Assembly: GCA_038245785.1 (NCBI GenBank)
Contig: JBBRSB010000017.1
Coordinates: forward strand, 1-64,000
Source of the DNA: Gloeobacterales cyanobacterium
GTDB lineage: Bacteria > Cyanobacteriota > Cyanobacteriia > Gloeobacterales > PMM-0068
Direction of reading: 5' to 3'
DNA length: 64,000 nt
The notes beneath the pieces were generated by a model. It ran no database searches. It saw nothing but the letters and a program-made list of their open reading frames with translations, and was not told the DNA's origin. Below, one piece after another: positions 15,757 to 46,291 of this stretch (the stretch's first letter is position 1; each line of letters opens with the position of its first letter). The position numbers and the translations under genes are program-made.

Positions 15757-18700
15757 ATGACTGAACATAACTACAATTGGAAACGCTTCTTTTGTCCACG
15801 TGAAGGTCGTCTCGACCTATTATCTGACGGAGGTTATCTTGTTGACCCAGAGGCAGACTGGGCGAAGTACCTTAGCCAGGATCTGAAAGAATTCAGCGCC
15901 ATAATCGATGCTCCCTGCCTAATACTGCTCGGCGAACGTGGCATAGGGAAATCTCGATTTCTCAAAGCCCAAAAAAACAGTATTGATCAACGGGTTAAGG
16001 AAAGAGGAGGAACGCTTTTATGGCTAAACCTCAATTCATTTAGTAGTGATAGCACTCTAATAGATGAGCTATTTAAGAGCCGCGAATTCATCGATTGGAC
16101 GACAGGATCTCATGAACTTCACCTCTGGCTGGATAGCTTTGATGAGTGCCAATTACACATCAAAACTTTAGAGGGTCTGCTCATCCGTAAACTCGAGCCT
16201 CATACTGAAAAAATAGAGCGGTTATTCCTCCGTATTGCCTGTCGCACAGCTGGATGGCCCAAAAGTTTGGAACAGGAATTAAATCAATTATGGAAAGACA
16301 AAGCACTGAGAGTCTATGAATTAGCCCCTTTGCGCCGTATCGATGTGAGAGAAGCAGCAACTAAAAATAATTTAGTTCCAGAGGAGTTCTTCGTTGAAGT
16401 TAGGCGTACCCAAACTACACCTTTTGCTATAAAGCCTGTCACTCTAGACTTTCTTATCGATCTCTACAAACAGAATCAGCATCTGCCACAGACCCAATCC
16501 GAATTGTACTTACAGGGATGTCAACTTCTATGTAAAGAGAGTCGCAACTTAGAATTAATGAGAAAGCTCACATTTCAAAAACGTATGGCTATAGCCTCAC
16601 GTATTGCGGCACTTACCCTTTTCACTAACCGATCTGCAATCTGGACAGAAACAGAGCAAGGAAATATGCCTGATGGGGACATAACTATCGAGCAAATGTG
16701 TGGAGGTCAGGATAGTGCAGACATGAATGGACTCCCCAAAGAATTTGAGGTAGAGCGACCTGAGATTGAGGAAACTCTCGCTACAGGATTATTTTCAGCC
16801 CGTGGAGTAGGGCGCATAGGTTGGGCACACCAAAGCTATGCAGATTACCTCGCTGCAAAGTACCTCAAAGACCGCAAGCTAGAACTCCCCCAAATGATGT
16901 CTCTCATAACTCATCCAGATGATCCAGAGAAGCATTTAGTCCCACAACTTTATGAAGCCGCTGCTTGGCTTGGCACGATGGACTCAGGAGTATTTCAGGA
17001 AATCATGAGAACAGATCCTGATGTTTTACTCCTTAGTGATGTGGCATCAGTAGATGAAGCAAACCGTGCCGCTCTTGTAGAAGAGTTGTTGAAGTTAATT
17101 AATGAGGGGAAGATAAATACGTGGAGCTATAGGCAGTATTCAAAGTTAAAACACTCAAACATTGAACAGCAATTGCGCCTTTATCTGCGAGACAAGAGTA
17201 AAACGACTGATGCCCATAAAGTTGCGATCGAAATAGCAGAATCCTGTAATGTTCGATTACTTCAACAATATTTAGTAGACATTGCATTAGAGACTACTGA
17301 GTCTATCGAAGTACGGGAGAACGCAGCTCGAGCAGTTAGTTCCATTGGAGATGAGCATACAAAAAAACTCTTGAAACCTCTGGCGACTGGTGATGCAGGA
17401 GAAGATCCACGTGATCAACTAAAGGGCTATGGGCTGAAAGCAATATGGCCCGAAGGCATAAGCGCCCAAGAGTTATTTACTTTACTTACACCACCTAAGC
17501 AAAATAACTATTTTGGAGCTTACAATAAATTTATTTATGATGATTTAGTAGACGGTCTTCAACCAAAAGACTTACCTATTGCTCTCAACTGGATAGAAAA
17601 TGAACCTGAATGCGTACATGATGCCTTGCATCTATTTAGCGATCTCGCAGATGCTATCTTGACCTTAGCTTGGAAGCATCTACTAGCTGTTCATGATGTG
17701 TTGACAGGTTTTGCTAAAGTTGCACTAAAGCGCCTAAAAAGTGATGGCTATATCATTCAGAAAAATGGGGATTCATCATTTTATACTGAGTTGTATAATG
17801 ATGAGACTAAGCGACTTACTCTTGTCAAAGAACTAGTTTCATTAGTCTCAAGATCTGAGCGGGATAATGATGCCAATTATTCTTCCTTAGTACACAGTAG
17901 TGATATTCCTTGGATGATTGAATGTCTCCAGGCATCAAATGATAATAAGGAGGAAAAGGTCTGGACTAGGCTTCTAAAAAGAGCATGGCTTGATGAATCT
18001 GATAATCCTAAATATTGTGATGCCATTATTAATGCATCTGAAATTAATCAAACTCTCAGAGATTTTTTTACTCTGCCTGCAGTTGTCTTCGACTCAGCGC
18101 AAGCCCAACAGATGATAGATGAGTACCAGCTTTTTGAGGCATACGAAGAACAAGATAGACAGAGGAAAGCACGACTTCATATAGGCCGAAATCCCTCACA
18201 GAAAGTTGAAGAATGCCTGAATGCATTCGAGTCAGGAGATATGGATGCTTGGTGGCACTTAAATTGGTTTTTGACCTTTAGTTTAGAGAGTAAATCTTGT
18301 AGTGAAATAGAACCTGATCTAACTACATATCCAGGGTGGATAGCATCTACTACTGCTACTCAGAGAAGGATTATAAATGCAGCCCAGCGTTACATTTTAG
18401 AAGGAGAGCCACAAATAAGTGAATGGTTAGGCAAAAACAAAATCCATCGACCCGCTTATGCAGGGTACAGAGCATTACAGCTTCTCATAAAAGAGAATTT
18501 TACTTCTATTGAGGCTATCCCTGCTGAAGTGTGGGAGAAGTGGGCATCAATTATTCTTAAGTACCCTACTGCGGAAAATTCAGATGCTGAAAAATTTCAA
18601 AAAGAACTGTTCAAGAAAGCGTATCAGTATGCTCCCAATAATATACTTTCAACCTTAAAAATTCTAATCGATGAGGAGATTCAGGAAGGACATGGTTATA

Positions 18701-20019
18701 TTTTTATCATTAATAGAGTGAAATTCTGTTGGGATAAACAGATTGCCCAATTGTTATTAACAAAAGCTCAGGAAGATAACTTAAAAATTTCCCATCTGAA
18801 GTGTCTACTTGAGGTGCTTCTTGAACAAAATGATTTGGATGCTATTTCCTTCGGGGAATCTCTTGTACAGTTTAAACAACAAAAAGCTGGTCACCGAAAA
18901 CGCAGACGAGGCTCTTTTCAAAAAGCAGTTATTGCATCACGTCTTCTAATAAGCCATTCATCTAAGATGCATTGGGAGACTATTTGGTCTGCTATCAGAC
19001 AGGACATTTATCTAGGCAGAAAAATTGCTGAAGCTGTAGCGTCTTACTGTGATATGAATGGTTTTGCTAGTAATAGTCTTTGCTTCCAAGAAGAACAGAG
19101 TGCTGACTTGTATATCTGGCTTGGTCACCAATATCCTTACTTACAAGATCCTCAACGTGATAATGGAGTTTATACTCCTGGAGTAAGAGACTATATTACC
19201 CAATTGAAATACTCTTTACTTAACCAGCTAAAAGAGCGTGGCACAGTCCAAGCCATCGAGCAAATGCAGAGAATTATGCTGGAATTTACTGATCTTGATT
19301 GGCTAAAGTTGACTTTGAAGGAAACTAAGTACAAGACTTATCAAAACATCTGGAGAGCACCTGAACCGCAAGATGTACTCAAGCTGACACAAGGCCAACA
19401 CAAACGCTTGGTGCAAAACGGTGAACAACTTCTTGAAGTATTGATTGAATCTCTGAAAAGGTTAGAACAGGAACTGCAGGGTGAGACGCCGCAAGCAATT
19501 GATCTATGGAATGAGATTGACAAGAATATTTTCAGACCTAAAGATGAGAATAGATTCTCTGATTACGTGAAGAGACATCTTGAAAAAGACCTCAAGTCAG
19601 CGCAGATATTAGTTAATCGAGAGGTCGAATTTCGCCGTGGTACTGGTGGACAACCTGGAGAACGACTTGATATTAAAGTAGATGTTTTTATTCCAGATAA
19701 TAATGGAGAAAAAATTAAAATCACTGCCATCATCGAAGTAAAAGGTTGCTGGAATACTGGTCTCAATTCTGCCATGAGAGATCAACTTGCAGGCCGCTAT
19801 CTCGAAGAAAGCCAGTGTTATCATGGGCTCTACTTAGTTGGATGGTATTTTTGCCCTCAATGGGATGAGAATCATCAACCGAACAAAAATGCTCTCCGGC
19901 TTACTACGGAGTTCCGTGATATCGACAGCGCACAGAGCCACTTCGACGAACAGGCAGCAGCTCTATCTTCAGATGGTAAGCAGGTCCGAGCCTTTGTCAT
20001 AAACACTGCATTGCGATAG
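15757..20019 (+). CDS. NACHT/STAND-type NTPase with helical repeat region and C-terminal PD-(D/E)xK-like domain (candidate anti-phage protein)
   Basis: Walker A LLGERGIGKS, Walker B LWLDSFDE, LRIACR, WAHQSYADYLAA winged-helix motif; C-terminal DE...NREV...LDIKV...IIEVKGCWN. Confidence 0.75.
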   Translation: MTEHNYNWKRFFCPREGRLDLLSDGGYLVDPEADWAKYLSQDLKEFSAIIDAPCLILLGERGIGKSRFLKAQKNSIDQRVKERGGTLLWLNLNSFSSDSTLIDELFKSREFIDWTTGSHELHLWLDSFDECQLHIKTLEGLLIRKLEPHTEKIERLFLRIACRTAGWPKSLEQELNQLWKDKALRVYELAPLRRIDVREAATKNNLVPEEFFVEVRRTQTTPFAIKPVTLDFLIDLYKQNQHLPQTQSELYLQGCQLLCKESRNLELMRKLTFQKRMAIASRIAALTLFTNRSAIWTETEQGNMPDGDITIEQMCGGQDSADMNGLPKEFEVERPEIEETLATGLFSARGVGRIGWAHQSYADYLAAKYLKDRKLELPQMMSLITHPDDPEKHLVPQLYEAAAWLGTMDSGVFQEIMRTDPDVLLLSDVASVDEANRAALVEELLKLINEGKINTWSYRQYSKLKHSNIEQQLRLYLRDKSKTTDAHKVAIEIAESCNVRLLQQYLVDIALETTESIEVRENAARAVSSIGDEHTKKLLKPLATGDAGEDPRDQLKGYGLKAIWPEGISAQELFTLLTPPKQNNYFGAYNKFIYDDLVDGLQPKDLPIALNWIENEPECVHDALHLFSDLADAILTLAWKHLLAVHDVLTGFAKVALKRLKSDGYIIQKNGDSSFYTELYNDETKRLTLVKELVSLVSRSERDNDANYSSLVHSSDIPWMIECLQASNDNKEEKVWTRLLKRAWLDESDNPKYCDAIINASEINQTLRDFFTLPAVVFDSAQAQQMIDEYQLFEAYEEQDRQRKARLHIGRNPSQKVEECLNAFESGDMDAWWHLNWFLTFSLESKSCSEIEPDLTTYPGWIASTTATQRRIINAAQRYILEGEPQISEWLGKNKIHRPAYAGYRALQLLIKENFTSIEAIPAEVWEKWASIILKYPTAENSDAEKFQKELFKKAYQYAPNNILSTLKILIDEEIQEGHGYIFIINRVKFCWDKQIAQLLLTKAQEDNLKISHLKCLLEVLLEQNDLDAISFGESLVQFKQQKAGHRKRRRGSFQKAVIASRLLISHSSKMHWETIWSAIRQDIYLGRKIAEAVASYCDMNGFASNSLCFQEEQSADLYIWLGHQYPYLQDPQRDNGVYTPGVRDYITQLKYSLLNQLKERGTVQAIEQMQRIMLEFTDLDWLKLTLKETKYKTYQNIWRAPEPQDVLKLTQGQHKRLVQNGEQLLEVLIESLKRLEQELQGETPQAIDLWNEIDKNIFRPKDENRFSDYVKRHLEKDLKSAQILVNREVEFRRGTGGQPGERLDIKVDVFIPDNNGEKIKITAIIEVKGCWNTGLNSAMRDQLAGRYLEESQCYHGLYLVGWYFCPQWDENHQPNKNALRLTTEFRDIDSAQSHFDEQAAALSSDGKQVRAFVINTALR

Positions 20020-40845: not shown

Positions 40846-41025
40846 GACCTCTCCAAGGTGGAGTTAATTTCGGGACCATGGCAGAATTTCAGCAGCATTT
40901 GAGCTTGGGTCTGCTGGAGCGTCATTTGGCTTCTTCTAAGACTCTTAGGATCTAGCTTCTTAAGTCTGCCTCAAACTGTGACCAGTTATCTACACTGTAA
41001 CCTGGCTGGCCAAGAGCACAGCCTG

Positions 41026-42112
41026 TTAAGGAAACTCCAAAGTCAATTGGTCTGTGTGTATAGTGCTTTGATCTTCGTTGGGAAAGTTGGAGATGGACAA
41101 ACCCAACAAACGGATGCGACGCTCATCTGCTGGTAAGGATTTAAGCAATTGATGCCCTAAAAGAAAGAGACTTTCGGCCTTATGCAAAAGCTCTGGCACT
41201 GTCCGGCTGCGGGTCAACTGTTGCAGATCCGCATATTTGAGTTTCAGAACCAGGGTATGTCCCGTTAACTGGTTTTTTTCAAGGCGTTCCTGCAATACCT
41301 GAGACAACATGCATAGTTGTTCTACAAGAACGTCGAAGTCTGACAGATCTTCAAGAAAAGAGGTTTCAACGCCTATAGACTTTCGGCTGCGATTTGGAAT
41401 GACCGGGCGGCTATCTTGCCCATGAGCCATTTGATAGTAGAAGTGCCCATGCTTCCCGAAGTGACGAGCTAAATCTATTGCAGTCCATTGCTTGAGGTCA
41501 GCGCCCGTTCGAATGCCCAGGGTGTACATCCTTATCTGCAGTAGCCTTTCCCACTCCATAGAATTTCTCAATTACTAAGGCCTCAATCAGGGCCTCGGCT
41601 TCATCGGGTTGGATAATGCGTAGTCCATCAGGTTTGTTCAATCCAGAAGCAAGCTTTGCCAGGAATTTATTGTAGGAAACTCCTGCTGAAGCCGTGAGGC
41701 CCGTTTGTTCAAAGATAGCTGCTCTTATCTTGCGAGCAATAAGGGTAGCGGAGGGAATACCAAGCTTATTTGTGGTTACCTCTAAGTAGGCTTCGTCCAA
41801 GGCCAGCGGTTCAACCAAGTCTGTGTAGCGGAGGAAGATTTGATGAATCTGCTCGGAGATGGCTTTGTATACATCGAATCGAGGTGGGGCGAAGATCAGG
41901 TCCTTACACTTTTGGATAGCCAGACGTGAGGGCATTGCAGAGTGGATACCGTAGCGACGGGCTTCATAACTGGCGGCAGCTACCGCTCCCCGTTGCTGAG
42001 GTGTACCACCAACCACCAACGGTTTACCCCGGAAGGCTGGATTATCGCGCTGCTCTACAGAGGCGTAGAAAGCGTCCATATCCAGGTGAATGATTTTGCG
42101 GAGGGTTGGCAT
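41026..42112 (-). pseudogene. dinB: DNA polymerase IV split by a single-base frameshift
   Basis: IHLDMDAFYASVEQ, ASYEAR, LALDEAYL in one frame; LGIRTGADL, RKSIGVETSF, IRLLGL in the next; extra base at 41530-41531. Confidence 0.9.
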
Positions 42113-42208
42113 CTTTCATCCCCAGACCGCCTTCAGTGTGACGCTTAAGATGGACATTTGTCCAGAAAAGAATGAGTTATAGCTCTGCAGGAACATACTC
42201 ATGAGTTG

Positions 42209-42424
42209 TCATGCGGCGCGCACTTCGACATATTCGATGCTGGAAGAAGGCCCAGGAATGGGATGACCGTCTTCGCGTAATCCTTCGATATGAAACTCAA
42301 TTGCCTCTTGGATCAATTCCAACACTTCTTCTTTCGTATCTGCTACAGCAACACAACCCGGCAAATCTGGCACATAAGCACCAAAACTATTTTCACCCTC
42401 TTCCACAATCACGGCGTATTTCAT
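42209..42424 (-). CDS. hicB: HicB family antitoxin
   Basis: YVPDLPGC..A.T.EE....IQEAI.FH.EG. Confidence 0.92.
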   Translation of the reverse strand: MKYAVIVEEGENSFGAYVPDLPGCVAVADTKEEVLELIQEAIEFHIEGLREDGHPIPGPSSSIEYVEVRAA

Positions 42425-42440
42425 ATTTTGCCTCTCTCGC

Positions 42441-42626
42441 CTATTTCAAGCCTGCTTGCTTTAAGATGCTGTTGAGCGTTCCGGGTGGAACATCAATATT
42501 CGGCTTGCCAGAAACCGTCACAGTCCCAGATTTACTCGAATGCTTAAATTGGCGATGACTGCCCTTCGTTCTCGCCAGGTACCAACCATCTTTTTCAAGA
42601 AGCTTGATTACCTCCTTAACTTTCAT
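42441..42626 (-). CDS. hicA: HicA family mRNA interferase toxin
   Basis: LEKDGW...RTKGSHRQFKH..K.G.VTV.......GTL.SILKQAGL. Confidence 0.93.
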   Translation of the reverse strand: MKVKEVIKLLEKDGWYLARTKGSHRQFKHSSKSGTVTVSGKPNIDVPPGTLNSILKQAGLK

Positions 42627-42664
42627 AGGAGAATAATAAGATGTTTTCTATGCAAGGGGAAGAG

Positions 42665-42699
42665 GCCTAACGTCGGAAATGAGCGGCGGCTGGTTAGCC
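42665..42699 (-). mobile_element. Internally deleted integron attC site
   Basis: Minus strand GGCTAAC-CAGCCGCCGCTCATTTCCGAC-GTTAGGC: R''-like and R' (GTTRRRY) boxes with an attC-like 3' end, but too short for a full attC. Confidence 0.6.
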
Positions 42700-42783
42700 G
42701 TCACGCTCTTGCGCCGGCCCTTGCGCGCTTGCTCCACGAGTGCACTGACCTTTGAGGTGAGGCGGTTCAGCACTGCACTGTCT

Positions 42784-43074
42784 CTAGTGCCAAACCAACG
42801 AAGGGCCGAGCTTCGACTCTGCCAACAATTCAGCTTCTGCAAGACTGAGCGCTGCTCCGCCACCAACCCATTCGGGTTGTCCGGTCGGCGTACGAAAGAG
42901 CAGGTAGAAGCACTCGACCGCTCGGTCTTCAGCGATCTCCGGCGGGTCTTCATAGTCGCCCGAGCCGTACAACGTGTGACGCCTGACGATACGCACTTCG
43001 CATAGAACGTTGTCGGCGTACAGCCATGTACCCGTCTTCTCCGGCACAATGGACTCAATTTGCTTCACGTCCAA
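42784..43074 (-). CDS. Hypothetical protein, GC-rich, probable gene cassette (true start possibly GTG 43068 or lost)
   Basis: 96-aa ORF visibly more GC-rich than its flanks, lying between attC remnants. Confidence 0.65.
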   Translation of the reverse strand: MDVKQIESIVPEKTGTWLYADNVLCEVRIVRRHTLYGSGDYEDPPEIAEDRAVECFYLLFRTPTGQPEWVGGGAALSLAEAELLAESKLGPSLVWH

Positions 43075-43092
43075 TGACTTGTTGGGTGCGGC
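43064..43092 (-). mobile_element. Left half of an attC site closing the SDR cassette
   Basis: Minus strand GCCGC-ACCCAAC-AAGTCATTGGACGTGA: RYYYAAC box complementary to GTTGGGCGGC at the cassette start (44099-44090). Confidence 0.65.
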
Positions 43093-43187
43093 GTTATATT
43101 CCTCACAAGTCTATCAAAGTTGCGCTTTCGTTTTTCATCGGGCGAAGCGAAAGAACTTGTATTTCTTTGTGAATCTTTATAAAGACT

Positions 43188-44015
43188 TTATTGGGGCGCG
43201 AATCTGGAGTTCGCCCATTCAATGTACTCTTCGGTCGAAGTACGGCGCATCCGATCCCCAAGCTCTGAATCCTGCCCGACCATAAAGCGTAGTTTATTAG
43301 TATTGTCCGTCGCGGCGGCGAGTACCGCTTCGGCGATATCATTCTCGGTCGCAAAGTAATCCTTCGGTGGTTCACTCATATAGACGGCGAGCCTTTGATC
43401 GACATATGCTTGATATGAAGGCGGAACCGGAATTGATTGCGCGGCTTGTTGAGTGTGCTGAGCAAATTGCGTACTCGCTACGAATCCCGGCTCAACGATT
43501 TTTACCTTCACATTTTGAGTCTGCAACTCGTATTGGAGAGCTTCAGTAAAGCCACGCAGAGCAGCCTTACTAGCGCTGTAGATCGACATCAGCGGTTCAG
43601 GCACAGTCGCCGATCCCGAAGTAATGTTAATAATGCGCCCGCCGCCGTTTTGTCGAAAATGCGGAAGGACTGCTTGCGTGAGCAGCATTGCACCGAAGAC
43701 GTTTGTGTCGAAAAGCGATTTGACCATTTCCATCGGAGTTGCCTCGAATACGGAAAGTAAACCCATGCCCGCATTGTTGACGATGCAATCAATGCGACCA
43801 AATCGCTTGACTCCGAGATTGATGGCTTGGTCAATCGTCGCTTTGTCTTGGACATCGAGCCGAGTAACCAGAAGATTATCAGAGTTCTCGGTTTCTTCCC
43901 AATGATCTGCATTCCGCATAGTCGCCACAACATTCCAACCTGCGCTCAGGAATTTCAGAACTGATGCCTTTCCAAAGCCGGATGAGCATCCCGTAATAAG
44001 TACCGTTTGATTCAT
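43188..44015 (-). CDS. Short-chain dehydrogenase/reductase (gene cassette)
   Basis: TGCSSGFG, VNNAG, YSASK, VEPG; AGGAG RBS. Confidence 0.93.
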   Translation of the reverse strand: MNQTVLITGCSSGFGKASVLKFLSAGWNVVATMRNADHWEETENSDNLLVTRLDVQDKATIDQAINLGVKRFGRIDCIVNNAGMGLLSVFEATPMEMVKSLFDTNVFGAMLLTQAVLPHFRQNGGGRIINITSGSATVPEPLMSIYSASKAALRGFTEALQYELQTQNVKVKIVEPGFVASTQFAQHTQQAAQSIPVPPSYQAYVDQRLAVYMSEPPKDYFATENDIAEAVLAAATDNTNKLRFMVGQDSELGDRMRRTSTEEYIEWANSRFAPQ

Positions 44016-44089
44016 ATTTTCTCCTATGACCGAATAATAAAGATGCTTGAAAAAGCGTGTTATCTATCGGCGCATCCGTGTAACCGATA

Positions 44090-44130
44090 GCCGCCCAACT
44101 ACCTATTGGACTGAATCGAATCCGCCTAAC
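44090..44130 (-). mobile_element. Putative integron attI site
   Basis: Minus strand GTTAGGC..TCCAATAGGTA-GTTGGGC: two GTTRRRY cores between the intI remnant and the first cassette. Confidence 0.55.
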
Positions 44131-44344
44131 ACACTCAACAGAGATCTTAGGTAGATTCATTTCCACCTATCTCATCCAAACAGGTGATTATGTAGAAAAA
44201 TTCATACTCTAATTCCACCTAACACCCCTAATAGGGATCTTAGACTGAAGCGTTTCGGTATAACCACCGATCCGACTCCACACTATACTTTCACAAAAGT
44301 TTAATTAAATCAGGGGGATAATTCTTTACTTTACTCAAGCAGCT

Positions 44345-44440
44345 ATAGAAACCCCACCTAAAAAATTGTTGGAGCAAGTTCGGGACGCGATTCGCCTCAA
44401 GCACTACTCCTATCGAACCGAATAAACCCATGTTCAGCAG
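44345..44440 (+). pseudogene. intI: Integron integrase N-terminal remnant
   Basis: Translates (I)ETPPKKLLEQVRDAIRLKHYSYRTE*THVQ, the N-terminal SAM-like motif of IntI; start mutated to ATA, internal stop, rest deleted. Confidence 0.85.
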
Positions 44441-44527
44441 TCCACTTGATTTGTGACCTGAGTATCGATTTATTGAATTAATAAAAGCACAAAAAATCCT
44501 AAAGAATTCAGTTAGAATAACCCTACA

Positions 44528-44546
44528 AATTGAGAATGATTATTAC
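44528..44546. promoter_or_regulatory. Fur-family box-like sequence
   Basis: AATTGAGAATGATTATTAC resembles GATAATGATAATCATTATC; about 115 bp upstream of the CDF transporter. Confidence 0.45.
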
Positions 44547-44662
44547 ATTCACAAAGGCAATGATTACGCAAACATTATTTGTTTTCAACTCTTTTTATTT
44601 GCAACTCGTAGAAACTAATATAGAAGAAATAGACCCTCTGTTCCTTGGTGATACTTAACGAA

Positions 44663-45574
44663 ATGGCACATAACCATGAGCATGCTCACGTACACAGCGC
44701 CAGTGACTACAATCGCATTTTTGTGATAGCAGTCGCTCTCAACCTGGGCTTTGTTGGTGTAGAGGCTACCTATGGTTTTCTTGCTAATTCTCTGGCGCTG
44801 TTGGCAGATGCAGGCCATAACCTGAGTGATGTGCTGGGTCTGGCTTTGGCGTGGGGAGGCAGTGTGCTAGCCCGTCGACAGCCCTCTCTTCGGCGCACCT
44901 ATGGACTGCGGCGTTCGTCTATCCTCGCTGCTCTCTTAAATGCTTTTCTTATTTTGGTCGCAGTGGGAGCGATTGCTTTGGAAGCAGTCCAGCGCTTTAG
45001 CAGCCCTGGTCCGGTAGGGGGGGAAACGATCATCTGGGTAGCAGCTATTGGGGTAGTGATTAACACGATCAGTGCACTTCTCTTCATGGCGGGTCAAAAA
45101 GAAGACCTGAACCTACGTGCGGCCTTCCAGCACTTGGCCTCTGATGCAGCAGTATCCCTGGGAACGGTGTTGGCTGGAGTAACTTTACTGGCTACAGGGT
45201 GGACATGGTTAGACCCCGTAATGAGCCTGGTGATTTCTGTGATCATCCTGGCAGGAACTTGGGGATTGCTGGTTGATTCGCTCAATCTGGTTTTGGACGG
45301 TGTGCCTGAGAGCATTGAACCGAAAGCGGTAAAAAGTTACCTCGCCAGTCTTCCGGGAGTGACAGAAGTTCATGACTTGCATATCTGGGCGATGAGCACT
45401 ACCGAAACTGCTCTAACCGCTCACTTGGTCATTCCGGCGGGGGCTCCGGGGGATGCTTTCATCGCTATGACCTGTGAAGCGCTCCATGACCAGTTCGCAA
45501 TTGAACATGCCACACTCCAAATAGAAATGGGGGACGGCCATCCCTGTGCCTTGGCTCCAGACCATTTGGTTTAA
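44663..45574 (+). CDS. czcD: Cation diffusion facilitator (CzcD/ZitB-like)
   Basis: His-rich N-terminus, LADAGHNLSD, AAFQHLASD, VHDLHIW, IEHATLQIE. Confidence 0.92.
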   Translation: MAHNHEHAHVHSASDYNRIFVIAVALNLGFVGVEATYGFLANSLALLADAGHNLSDVLGLALAWGGSVLARRQPSLRRTYGLRRSSILAALLNAFLILVAVGAIALEAVQRFSSPGPVGGETIIWVAAIGVVINTISALLFMAGQKEDLNLRAAFQHLASDAAVSLGTVLAGVTLLATGWTWLDPVMSLVISVIILAGTWGLLVDSLNLVLDGVPESIEPKAVKSYLASLPGVTEVHDLHIWAMSTTETALTAHLVIPAGAPGDAFIAMTCEALHDQFAIEHATLQIEMGDGHPCALAPDHLV

Positions 45575-45604
45575 CAAAAAACTCGACCTAACCGTACAGG
45601 TCAT

Positions 45605-46291
45605 TCAGACGGATTTCTGAGTTTGCATTTTCAGCAAAGTGATACAGGTCATCAGCCAAAGAAAGCCAACAGAATAGCCTGCCAGTATATCTGTGGGCCA
45701 GTGGACGCCCAAATACAGACGACTAAATCCAATCGCGGCAATAATTCCGATGGCTGCAACATAAATCCAGCGGGAAAACTTAGGTAATTGGGTTGCCAGA
45801 AGATAGGCTAAAAACCCATATATCACGATTGACCCTAGCGCGTGACCGCTGGGAAAGCTAAAAGAGGTTTCATTAATGAGTTGCTGCCAAAGAATAGGAC
45901 GTGGCTTAGCAAAGAGAAGCTTTAGACCTTGATTAAGCACCAAGGCCCCTAAGCAGGCGACCGCGAACATCTTCGCTTGGAGATAGCATTGCTTCCACCA
46001 AAGCCAAATCAGGCTAGCCAGTACGACCCCGACAATGAATCCAGGATTACCCAAGTTCGTGATCCGTAGCATTAAATAATCAAGAACTGGATTGGCCCAC
46101 TGACGTATTCCTAAGAGCAGGGTTTTGTCGAGGCTAAACGTTTCTTTTTCCCATACCTCTTTAAATAGCCAACGCAAGGTAAGCAGAATGATTAAGTAGA
46201 GGGCCAGACTCGTTACACCAATGCTGGCAGTCAATGAGCTTATCTGAGGACTGACACGATGTATCCAGAAATTGACCAGTTTTTTCATCAC
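45605..46291 (-). CDS. PAP2 family phosphatase (undecaprenyl-PP phosphatase-like)
   Basis: K..FAKPRP, SFPSGHA, SRLYLGVHWPTD. Confidence 0.93.
   Translation of the reverse strand: MMKKLVNFWIHRVSPQISSLTASIGVTSLALYLIILLTLRWLFKEVWEKETFSLDKTLLLGIRQWANPVLDYLMLRITNLGNPGFIVGVVLASLIWLWWKQCYLQAKMFAVACLGALVLNQGLKLLFAKPRPILWQQLINETSFSFPSGHALGSIVIYGFLAYLLATQLPKFSRWIYVAAIGIIAAIGFSRLYLGVHWPTDILAGYSVGFLWLMTCITLLKMQTQKSV

Follow-up and report, generated by a model that had tools for sequence, protein, structure and literature searches.

A probable decayed chromosomal integron with an attI-proximal dehydrogenase cassette in a cyanobacterial genome

Introduction

Integron integrases (IntI) join the folded bottom strand of a cassette attC site to attI at G↓TT, so that the newest cassette comes first, as set out in the available text of PMC4889954 and PMC8618304. 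The hairpins of attC can be lost by slippage (available text of PMC8946536 and PMC8876359), and slippage at the hairpin is given as a proposed cause of fused cassettes in the part of PMC8876359 at hand. For integrons with an inactivated intI, the accessible portion of a recent preprint (bioRxiv 10.1101/2025.06.18.660453) cites Gillings 2005. Deletion of intI with a stable array, fused cassettes, CALINs and SALINs are already described. Cyanobacterial integrons, too, are on record in the text seen of PMC4889954 and PMC8618304. Our literature search, with most subscription papers outside it, returned nothing on multi-box attI sites in cyanobacteria or on several attI sites per genome.

Here we describe a locus in a 64,000-nucleotide stretch (the window) that forms positions 1-64000 of contig C17 in a 5.0 Mb cyanobacterial assembly (255 contigs, 47.8% GC). 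We interpret it, at a probability of roughly 85%, as a decayed chromosomal integron in which intI has been gutted, the attC sites cut down and three cassettes likely fixed behind an attI that appears whole and may still be a target for an intact IntI.

Methods

Sites of attC type were modelled with a covariance model built on 22 sites, 11 from this genome and 11 from metagenome loci, none from the window. A heuristic scanner, which below a score of 14 did no better than on a reversed-genome control, served to collect training sites. Candidate attI sites were scored with a matrix trained on nine sites from other genomes, one of them probably mis-picked. The hicAB DNA was searched in 400 genomes, with the best two candidates scored per genome.

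Results

The locus and its surroundings

The relic lies between dinB and a cation-efflux gene (Table 1), in a stretch of efflux and two-component genes. An ORF listing with Pfam places the short-chain dehydrogenase/reductase (SDR) gene, ORF2, hicA and hicB all on the minus strand. The locus had been reported as missing from the ORF track; this is true of the intI stub and the att sites, but a plain ORF listing finds the SDR gene, hicA and hicB. No Rfam match was obtained for 41000-46000 up to E 1. A promoter scan gave 5 sites against 3.5 +/- 1.6 expected, a count so close to expectation that we claim no Pc, Pint or hicAB promoter.

Around the relic, positions 28842-55251 hold two RND efflux operons, the cation-efflux gene, a two-component pair and an MprF-like gene, together with PAP2, persulfide-dioxygenase-like and TauE genes. 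This region is likely a metal and stress island. A single inserted base near 41534 splits the dinB gene (DNA polymerase IV), the sole dinB found in the genome. The extra base is present in the likely source run and absent from a relative's contig. Elsewhere in the window, a 1420-aa ORF (15757-20019) has no Pfam family at E 1e-10.

Table 1. Features of the relic and its flanks (positions in the window)
Feature	Position	Strand	Evidence or remark
dinB, frameshifted	42112-41026	minus	flank on the hicB side of the relic
hicB antitoxin gene, short form without DNA-binding tail	42209..42424	-	PF15919 positions 1-64 of 123, E 7.6e-15
hicA toxin gene	42441..42626	-	PF07927, E 4.5e-25
attC2 remnant: R'' 42699-42693, L' 42684-42678, R' GTTAGGC 42671-42665	42665..42699	-	covariance-model match
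ORF2, 94-aa protein, function not assigned	42784..43068	-	45 other proteins at E<=0.001, best 77%
attC1 remnant: R'' 43087-43081, 5-nt spacer, probable L'' box, then cut	43068..43087	-	sequence
SDR gene, 275 aa, intact frame	43188..44015	-	PF00106, E 1.6e-50
attI simple site: L box 44111-44105, 5-nt spacer, R box GTTGGGC 44099-44093	44093..44111	-	top matrix score in the window
Three tandem inverted-box units, boxes 17 nt apart: 44243-44219, 44191-44167, 44150-44126	44126..44243	-	layout kept across loci
intI pseudogene, 5' piece, codons 1-31	44345..44437	+	74% identity to C2 IntI residues 1-31, E 3e-7
intI pseudogene, 3' piece, last codons and stop	44437..44456	+	19/20 nt match to the end of C2 intI
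Cation-efflux gene	44645-45574	plus	other flank of the relic

The intI pseudogene

We identified both ends of an intI gene. The homology of the 5' piece ends at 44437, where the last 19 nt of the gene are directly joined to it, and the middle of the gene is thus lost (about 854 of 966 nt by comparison with the intact intI of contig C2). Short imperfect repeats (GTTC-AG-like) occur at the join. An intact intI beside attI, as in a complete functional integron, is consequently not present: in addition to the missing 854 of 966 nt, the stub begins with ATA in place of ATG and has a TAA at codon 27. The preliminary description had recorded a 32-codon IntI N-terminus at 44345-44440. The IntI origin stands, but the frame is not open, the homology stops at 44437, and the bases from there onward are the 3' end of intI.

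With at most 3 mismatches, the 3' piece occurs genome-wide only on C2, on C8 (another broken intI) and at the window locus. A search of the genome with the stub recovered six further copies or fragments of intI, at E 7e-12 to 0.016, and no other sequence below E 1.2. Its significant matches are thus intI copies and not XerC/D-type genes, on the point that had been named as deciding between IntI and another recombinase, and the match of both ends to C2 IntI likewise marks the remnant as derived from intI and not from another tyrosine recombinase. In relatives, matches to the stub DNA fall on the 5' ends of intI genes (e.g., G023, G024 and G028). The stub scores E 0.015 with Pfam PF13495, below the family cut-off, and its 26-aa piece alone gave no NCBIfam family above cut-off and matched no solved integrase, as expected at such length. 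At the DNA level the stub is only 74-77% identical to C2 intI, and thus C2 IntI is not the window site's own enzyme.

The attI site and its accessory boxes

The simple site, placed 5' of intI with a divergent array, scores 14.9 bits (runner-up in the window, 9.5), and its predicted crossover lies between 44099 and 44098 (G↓TT). A GTTGGGC attI-like site at 44099 and a minus-strand array diverging from intI had been proposed at the outset, and both coordinates and strands were confirmed. Genome-wide, 23 sites reach 17 bits or more, against 2 in the reversed-genome control; the window site is below that band, and the reversed control still gives 8 sites at 15 bits or more.

The three box units are likely accessory IntI-binding sites of attI. 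The same multi-box layout was found upstream of many other cyanobacterial intI genes and at solo sites. A strict regular expression for three-unit clusters gave 1 real against 1 control hit on the plus strand, which by itself is not significant, so the box array rests on conservation across loci. A 275-nt attI region recurs on C5 (80%) and C43 (86%). These copies and that of the window align as far as G↓TT and thereafter are unlike, leading into different genes, and this divergence reads as the signature of independent cassette insertions. Neither the simple site nor the three box units have a lesion relative to the paralogues, and the window attI looks intact.

Gene cassettes and attC remnants

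Cassette 1 runs from 44098 through the SDR gene to an inverse core, ACCCAAC, at 43087-43081. This core is complementary to the attI R box at 6 of 7 positions, in agreement with the complementary cassette ends first noted at 44099 and 43092-43081; about 0.02 inverse cores of this form are expected per 150 nt. The L'' box (8 nt after the 5-nt spacer) is assigned from position alone. We obtained no covariance-model match at 43081. The SDR protein has no NCBIfam family above cut-off among the best 25. With 8000 candidates scored, four relatives are 75-78% identical, one of them named Dictyobacter arantiisoli, after which identity drops to 58% or less. No SDR match at E 1e-60 was found in 200 genomes of the phylum, and a further scan of genome contigs gave one match, which is irrelevant.

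Cassette 2 contains ORF2, which likely starts at GTG 43068. Its relatives, mostly of 94-106 aa, begin at the matching position, so ORF2 is whole and the rest of attC1 was lost together with the start of cassette 2. Cassettes 1 and 2 would accordingly form a fused cassette. ORF2 falls into no Pfam or NCBIfam family, and 300 genomes of the phylum were searched with it without a match; a plasmid search gave nothing and an atlas search gave unnamed clusters only. Relatives of ORF2 stand beside a modelled attC at 6 of 26 metagenome loci (partly training sites) and at two more by folding, and no attC was seen at the other 18.

The attC2 remnant is the best window match of the attC model (18.6 bits, E about 0.05, a rough value for 64 kb; next, 11.6), and the match runs through the R boxes only. 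This agrees with a second, shortened attC ending in GTTAGGC before hicAB, as had been described: the element has 35 nt and canonical box spacing, lacks L'' and the loop, and ends 38 nt before hicA. It contains short imperfect GCC repeats, and in its 3' arm it is similar to intact attC sites of C38 and C52. The remnant is absent from the 38 genome-wide model matches at E<=1, for which the best 150 of 559 candidates were scored; at E<0.01 the same search gives 26 sites in the genome, 10 of which had been used for training. A long attC across the 85 nt after ORF2 was considered and rejected (no L'' complement, z -0.63, no model support). Between the ORF2 stop and attC2 are 84 GC-rich bases (42700-42783), of which one frame ends at a TAA inside R''; a further cassette gene, most of it deleted, may have had its end here.

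No complete attC was found in the region by the heuristic scan, a 46-nt stretch folds no better than shuffles (z -0.32), and neither remnant has the R''-L''-loop-L'-R' bottom-strand hairpin of a functional site. A CALIN is defined by two or more detectable attC sites with no intI close by, whereas this locus has one marginal attC match by the model built here.

Cassette 3 carries hicA followed by hicB, both above their Pfam cut-offs, and thus has the make-up of a HicAB type II toxin-antitoxin pair. It starts at G↓TT. No attC was found after hicB by heuristic scan or covariance model; the hicB stop overlaps an inverse-core-like 7-mer at 5 of 7 positions only. The nearest named relatives of HicA (about 85-90%) are from Pyrinomonadaceae (about 90%) and other Acidobacteriota. 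A plasmid search for hicAB gave a single match (68%), and HicA relatives occur at 80 loci in viral contigs at 69% identity or less. We identified no obvious ribosome-binding site for hicA. A TATTAT hexamer, not in the promoter-scan list, stands 6 nt before the ATG (in 42627-42664), and the transcript is possibly leaderless. A stabilising role for this hicAB is doubtful, since it is the last cassette of an array that likely cannot excise.

Positions 42665-43068 have 59% GC, against 47.9 +/- 4.9% in equal windows of the genome (top 0.4%). The GC shift proposed for the middle cassette was confirmed and its foreign origin supported, and GC marks this cassette only (SDR 50%, hicAB 45-47%). For the SDR and hicAB cassettes a foreign origin is supported by homology, not by GC; the organisms named are nearest matches rather than donors.

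Boundaries in contigs from public runs

We compared contigs of 4 of the 15 listed public runs; these contigs are unlinked and the organisms may differ. One contig of run X3 matches 43517-44099 with 9 differences (574/583 nt, 98.5%), and three contigs of this run turn unlike behind 44099. In run X4, a contig matches 42211-42672, including hicAB (456/462 nt, 98.7%), and continues into 394 other bases. The attI is carried by another X4 contig (19 differences over 44096-44361); before 44096, two contigs of this run become unlike the window, as if the first cassette were a different one. The outside matches end on or within three bases of predicted crossovers and thus support cassette status for both SDR and hicAB. 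For the SDR cassette, a G↓TT start and complementary inverse core are therefore joined by the same boundary elsewhere. At its far end, however, the match of three outside contigs breaks off at 43107-43112, which is 20-25 nt before the attC1 R'' is reached, so that this R'' may not be the cassette's original and the tail may differ in other hosts.

One outside contig has a 90% match at 44437-44763; left of 44437 it continues for 100 nt that differ from the window, in keeping with a relative that does not have the intI deletion. In an X4 contig the dinB start is joined to the last 20 nt of hicB (90%), and the hicAB-dinB junction may be older. No empty site was found; in G002, a genome of the same genus, the cation-efflux gene lies in different surroundings.

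Related attI sites and integrases

The genome contains more than 20 attI-like sites and one intact intI. A search for an intact intI elsewhere had been suggested, and the one found, on C2, encodes 321 aa in an intact frame with catalytic motifs kept. It scores 480 bits against a TIGR02249 cut-off of 265, the sole one of 16 matches above that cut-off, and aligns over its full length with VchIntIA (PDB 2A3V, E 5e-94). The attI box array upstream of C2 intI is interrupted by an insertion-sequence end (C2:1-300), which we take to be IS110-like by motif. The same end adjoins an attI-like region on C53 (12300-12599). Its position just upstream of C2 intI means that this gene may be poorly expressed.

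A modelled attC lies within 2.5 kb of 13 of 29 attI-like positions (some of the positions were scanned with filters), and several of these other sites bear intact attC arrays. At 10 of 12 attI positions outside the window, R'' of the first attC complements the R box at 6-7 of 7 positions. The 12.7-kb contig C52 has three attI-like sites (at 203, 2408 and 11085), and behind each of them lies a cassette whose attC is complementary. Arrays of near-identical 90-nt attC sites, with five sites on C81 and three on C213, contrast with the mixed attC sites of other loci; both contigs are small and could belong to a single long array or to a contaminant in the bin. At the C5 attI paralogue (C5:56960-57182), an intI stub breaks off after about 8 codons, at a junction that contains GTT and resembles an R box, and an attC is just upstream on the array strand; this attI unit may itself have been inserted into an array by integrase.

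An exact 20-letter attI pattern, designed with the window site in view and hence circular for that site, has 8 matches in this genome, occurs in 11 of 40 relatives and gave 2 matches in all controls. The complete genomes G020 and G028 have 5 and 4 matches, respectively, and one intI each. We identified an IntI stub at 1 and a modelled attC at 4 of 16 pattern loci from other genomes. We considered whether solo attI sites arise in general by internal deletion of intI; with a stub at 1 of these 16 loci, this route has no support elsewhere. Upstream of three solo attI sites in G020, about 330 bases are almost the same, which suggests that a unit with attI but no intI was duplicated recently. G019 has two solo copies separated by 3.1 kb; at the end of both, the R box is directly repeated, as though the core had been duplicated by an insertion that was empty or minimal. 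An intI above cut-off was found in 13 of 40 sampled relatives (the sample is not random), which gives no support to the statement that integrons are uncommon in cyanobacteria.

Discussion

The stub, the attI site and the cassette ends support the earlier proposal of an integron relic with an attI-proximal SDR cassette. We envisage that a whole integron once lay between dinB and the cation-efflux gene, and that IntI would have inserted hicAB, then ORF2 and then the SDR cassette at G↓TT. Loss of the intI middle and of the attC hairpins would have followed; its likely cause is slippage, for which the intI join (GTTC-AG-like) and attC2 (GCC) offer short imperfect repeats. Remnants without L'' or a 3' arm should be unable to form the R and L box pairs required by IntI, and attC x attC excision should be impossible even if integrase were supplied. 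Without a foldable attC, the cassette genes are likely fixed. Insertion at attI may remain possible if C2 IntI recognises the window attI. The preliminary description had the relic frozen by deletion of the integrase and the attC cores. Both are indeed gutted, but the attI looks intact and an intact IntI is encoded on C2.

The locus could instead be fully dead, with neither addition nor removal of cassettes possible. The deleted intI, the gutted attC sites and the frameshift in neighbouring dinB are in keeping with this, as is the insertion-sequence end upstream of C2 intI, given that this gene may be poorly expressed. The lesion-free attI site and box units and the intact frame and motifs of C2 IntI speak against it, and we consider complete inactivity a serious contender that falls somewhat short of even odds.

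A little less probable, though still plausible, is that the integrase gene died first and that at least one cassette was loaded later by the intact IntI of another contig. This is compatible with a decayed chromosomal integron and differs from it in the order of events. Loading in trans would suit the 98-99% identity of SDR and hicAB to outside copies beside a stub that has lost its start codon and gained a stop. It would also suit a genome in which one intact intI coexists with so many attI-like sites, several with intact attC arrays, and the similar ratio in G020 and G028. However, the two point changes in 93 nt may, like both attC deletions, have arisen after capture, and the 74-77% DNA identity of the stub shows that C2 IntI is not the site's own enzyme.

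We consider it improbable that the SDR gene is the only cassette, with ORF2 and hicAB brought in by off-target attG insertion or island accretion and the att-like boxes there due to chance. HicAB systems are common outside integrons. The distant relatives in viral contigs, the marginal E of attC2 and the lack of a detectable attC after hicB also allow this explanation, but the outside hicAB homology breaks off a single base away from the G of GTTAGGC, the spacing of R'', L' and R' in attC2 is still canonical, and ORF2 is from a cassette-prone family. That the deletions are collapsed or chimeric joins, as might arise in a 255-contig assembly with many attI repeats, is very unlikely given a 7.8-kb contig of public run X1 that spans 41000-45000 without difference, evidence that is not independent if X1 is the source sample, as it may be.

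A decayed chromosomal integron at this position is, as a single locus, ordinary integron decay. Its modest value lies in what it says about how solo attI sites arise: since the two intI ends are present, at least the window copy would have come from a whole integron. On a broader and more tentative view, to which we give about as much credence as to loading in trans, cyanobacteria run a distributed integron, with scattered multi-box attI sites, one integrase, and captured genes made permanent by loss of attC hairpins. If so, the locus would be a snapshot of the birth of a solo attI, in which an integron drops the middle of its integrase and keeps a live attI, and would also show the domestication of foreign genes behind such a site. 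Relics with neither a scoring attC nor an intact intI would likely be overlooked by standard surveys, which would then undercount cassette-derived genes in cyanobacteria. The window attI and the C2 integrase are a ready substrate pair for questions of trans-loading and of the extra boxes.

Comparison with known systems

The sedentary chromosomal integrons of Xanthomonas, as far as described in the available text of bioRxiv 10.1101/2025.06.18.660453, likewise have intI killed by stops or large deletions and an array left stable. They represent one ancestral locus beside ilvD, whereas the window locus is one of more than 20 attI-like sites and has gutted attC sites as well.

The fused cassettes blaGES-1/aacA4 and blaOXA-10/aadA1 (accessible part of PMC8876359) resemble cassettes 1 and 2 in partial attC loss, two whole coding regions and a short spacer. 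Fusions of the blaGES-1/aacA4 type stay mobile by their second attC according to the same text, whereas here the second attC is broken too.

CALINs and SALINs, in the portions at hand of PMC4889954 and bioRxiv 10.1101/2022.09.11.507474, are also cassettes without a working adjacent integrase that are possibly mobilised in trans. They are defined by detectable attC sites and mostly are without an intI pseudogene; the window locus, in contrast, has attI and an intI pseudogene and no scoring attC.

The attI1 site of class 1 integrons, with DR1 and DR2, is like the window attI in having an L box, a short spacer, a GTT R box and extra upstream boxes (available text of PMC8946536). The extra boxes of attI1 are two direct repeats, whereas those of the window attI are three pairs of inverted boxes 17 nt apart. 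The attIA site of V. cholerae has no extra boxes, and in this respect is unlike the window attI.
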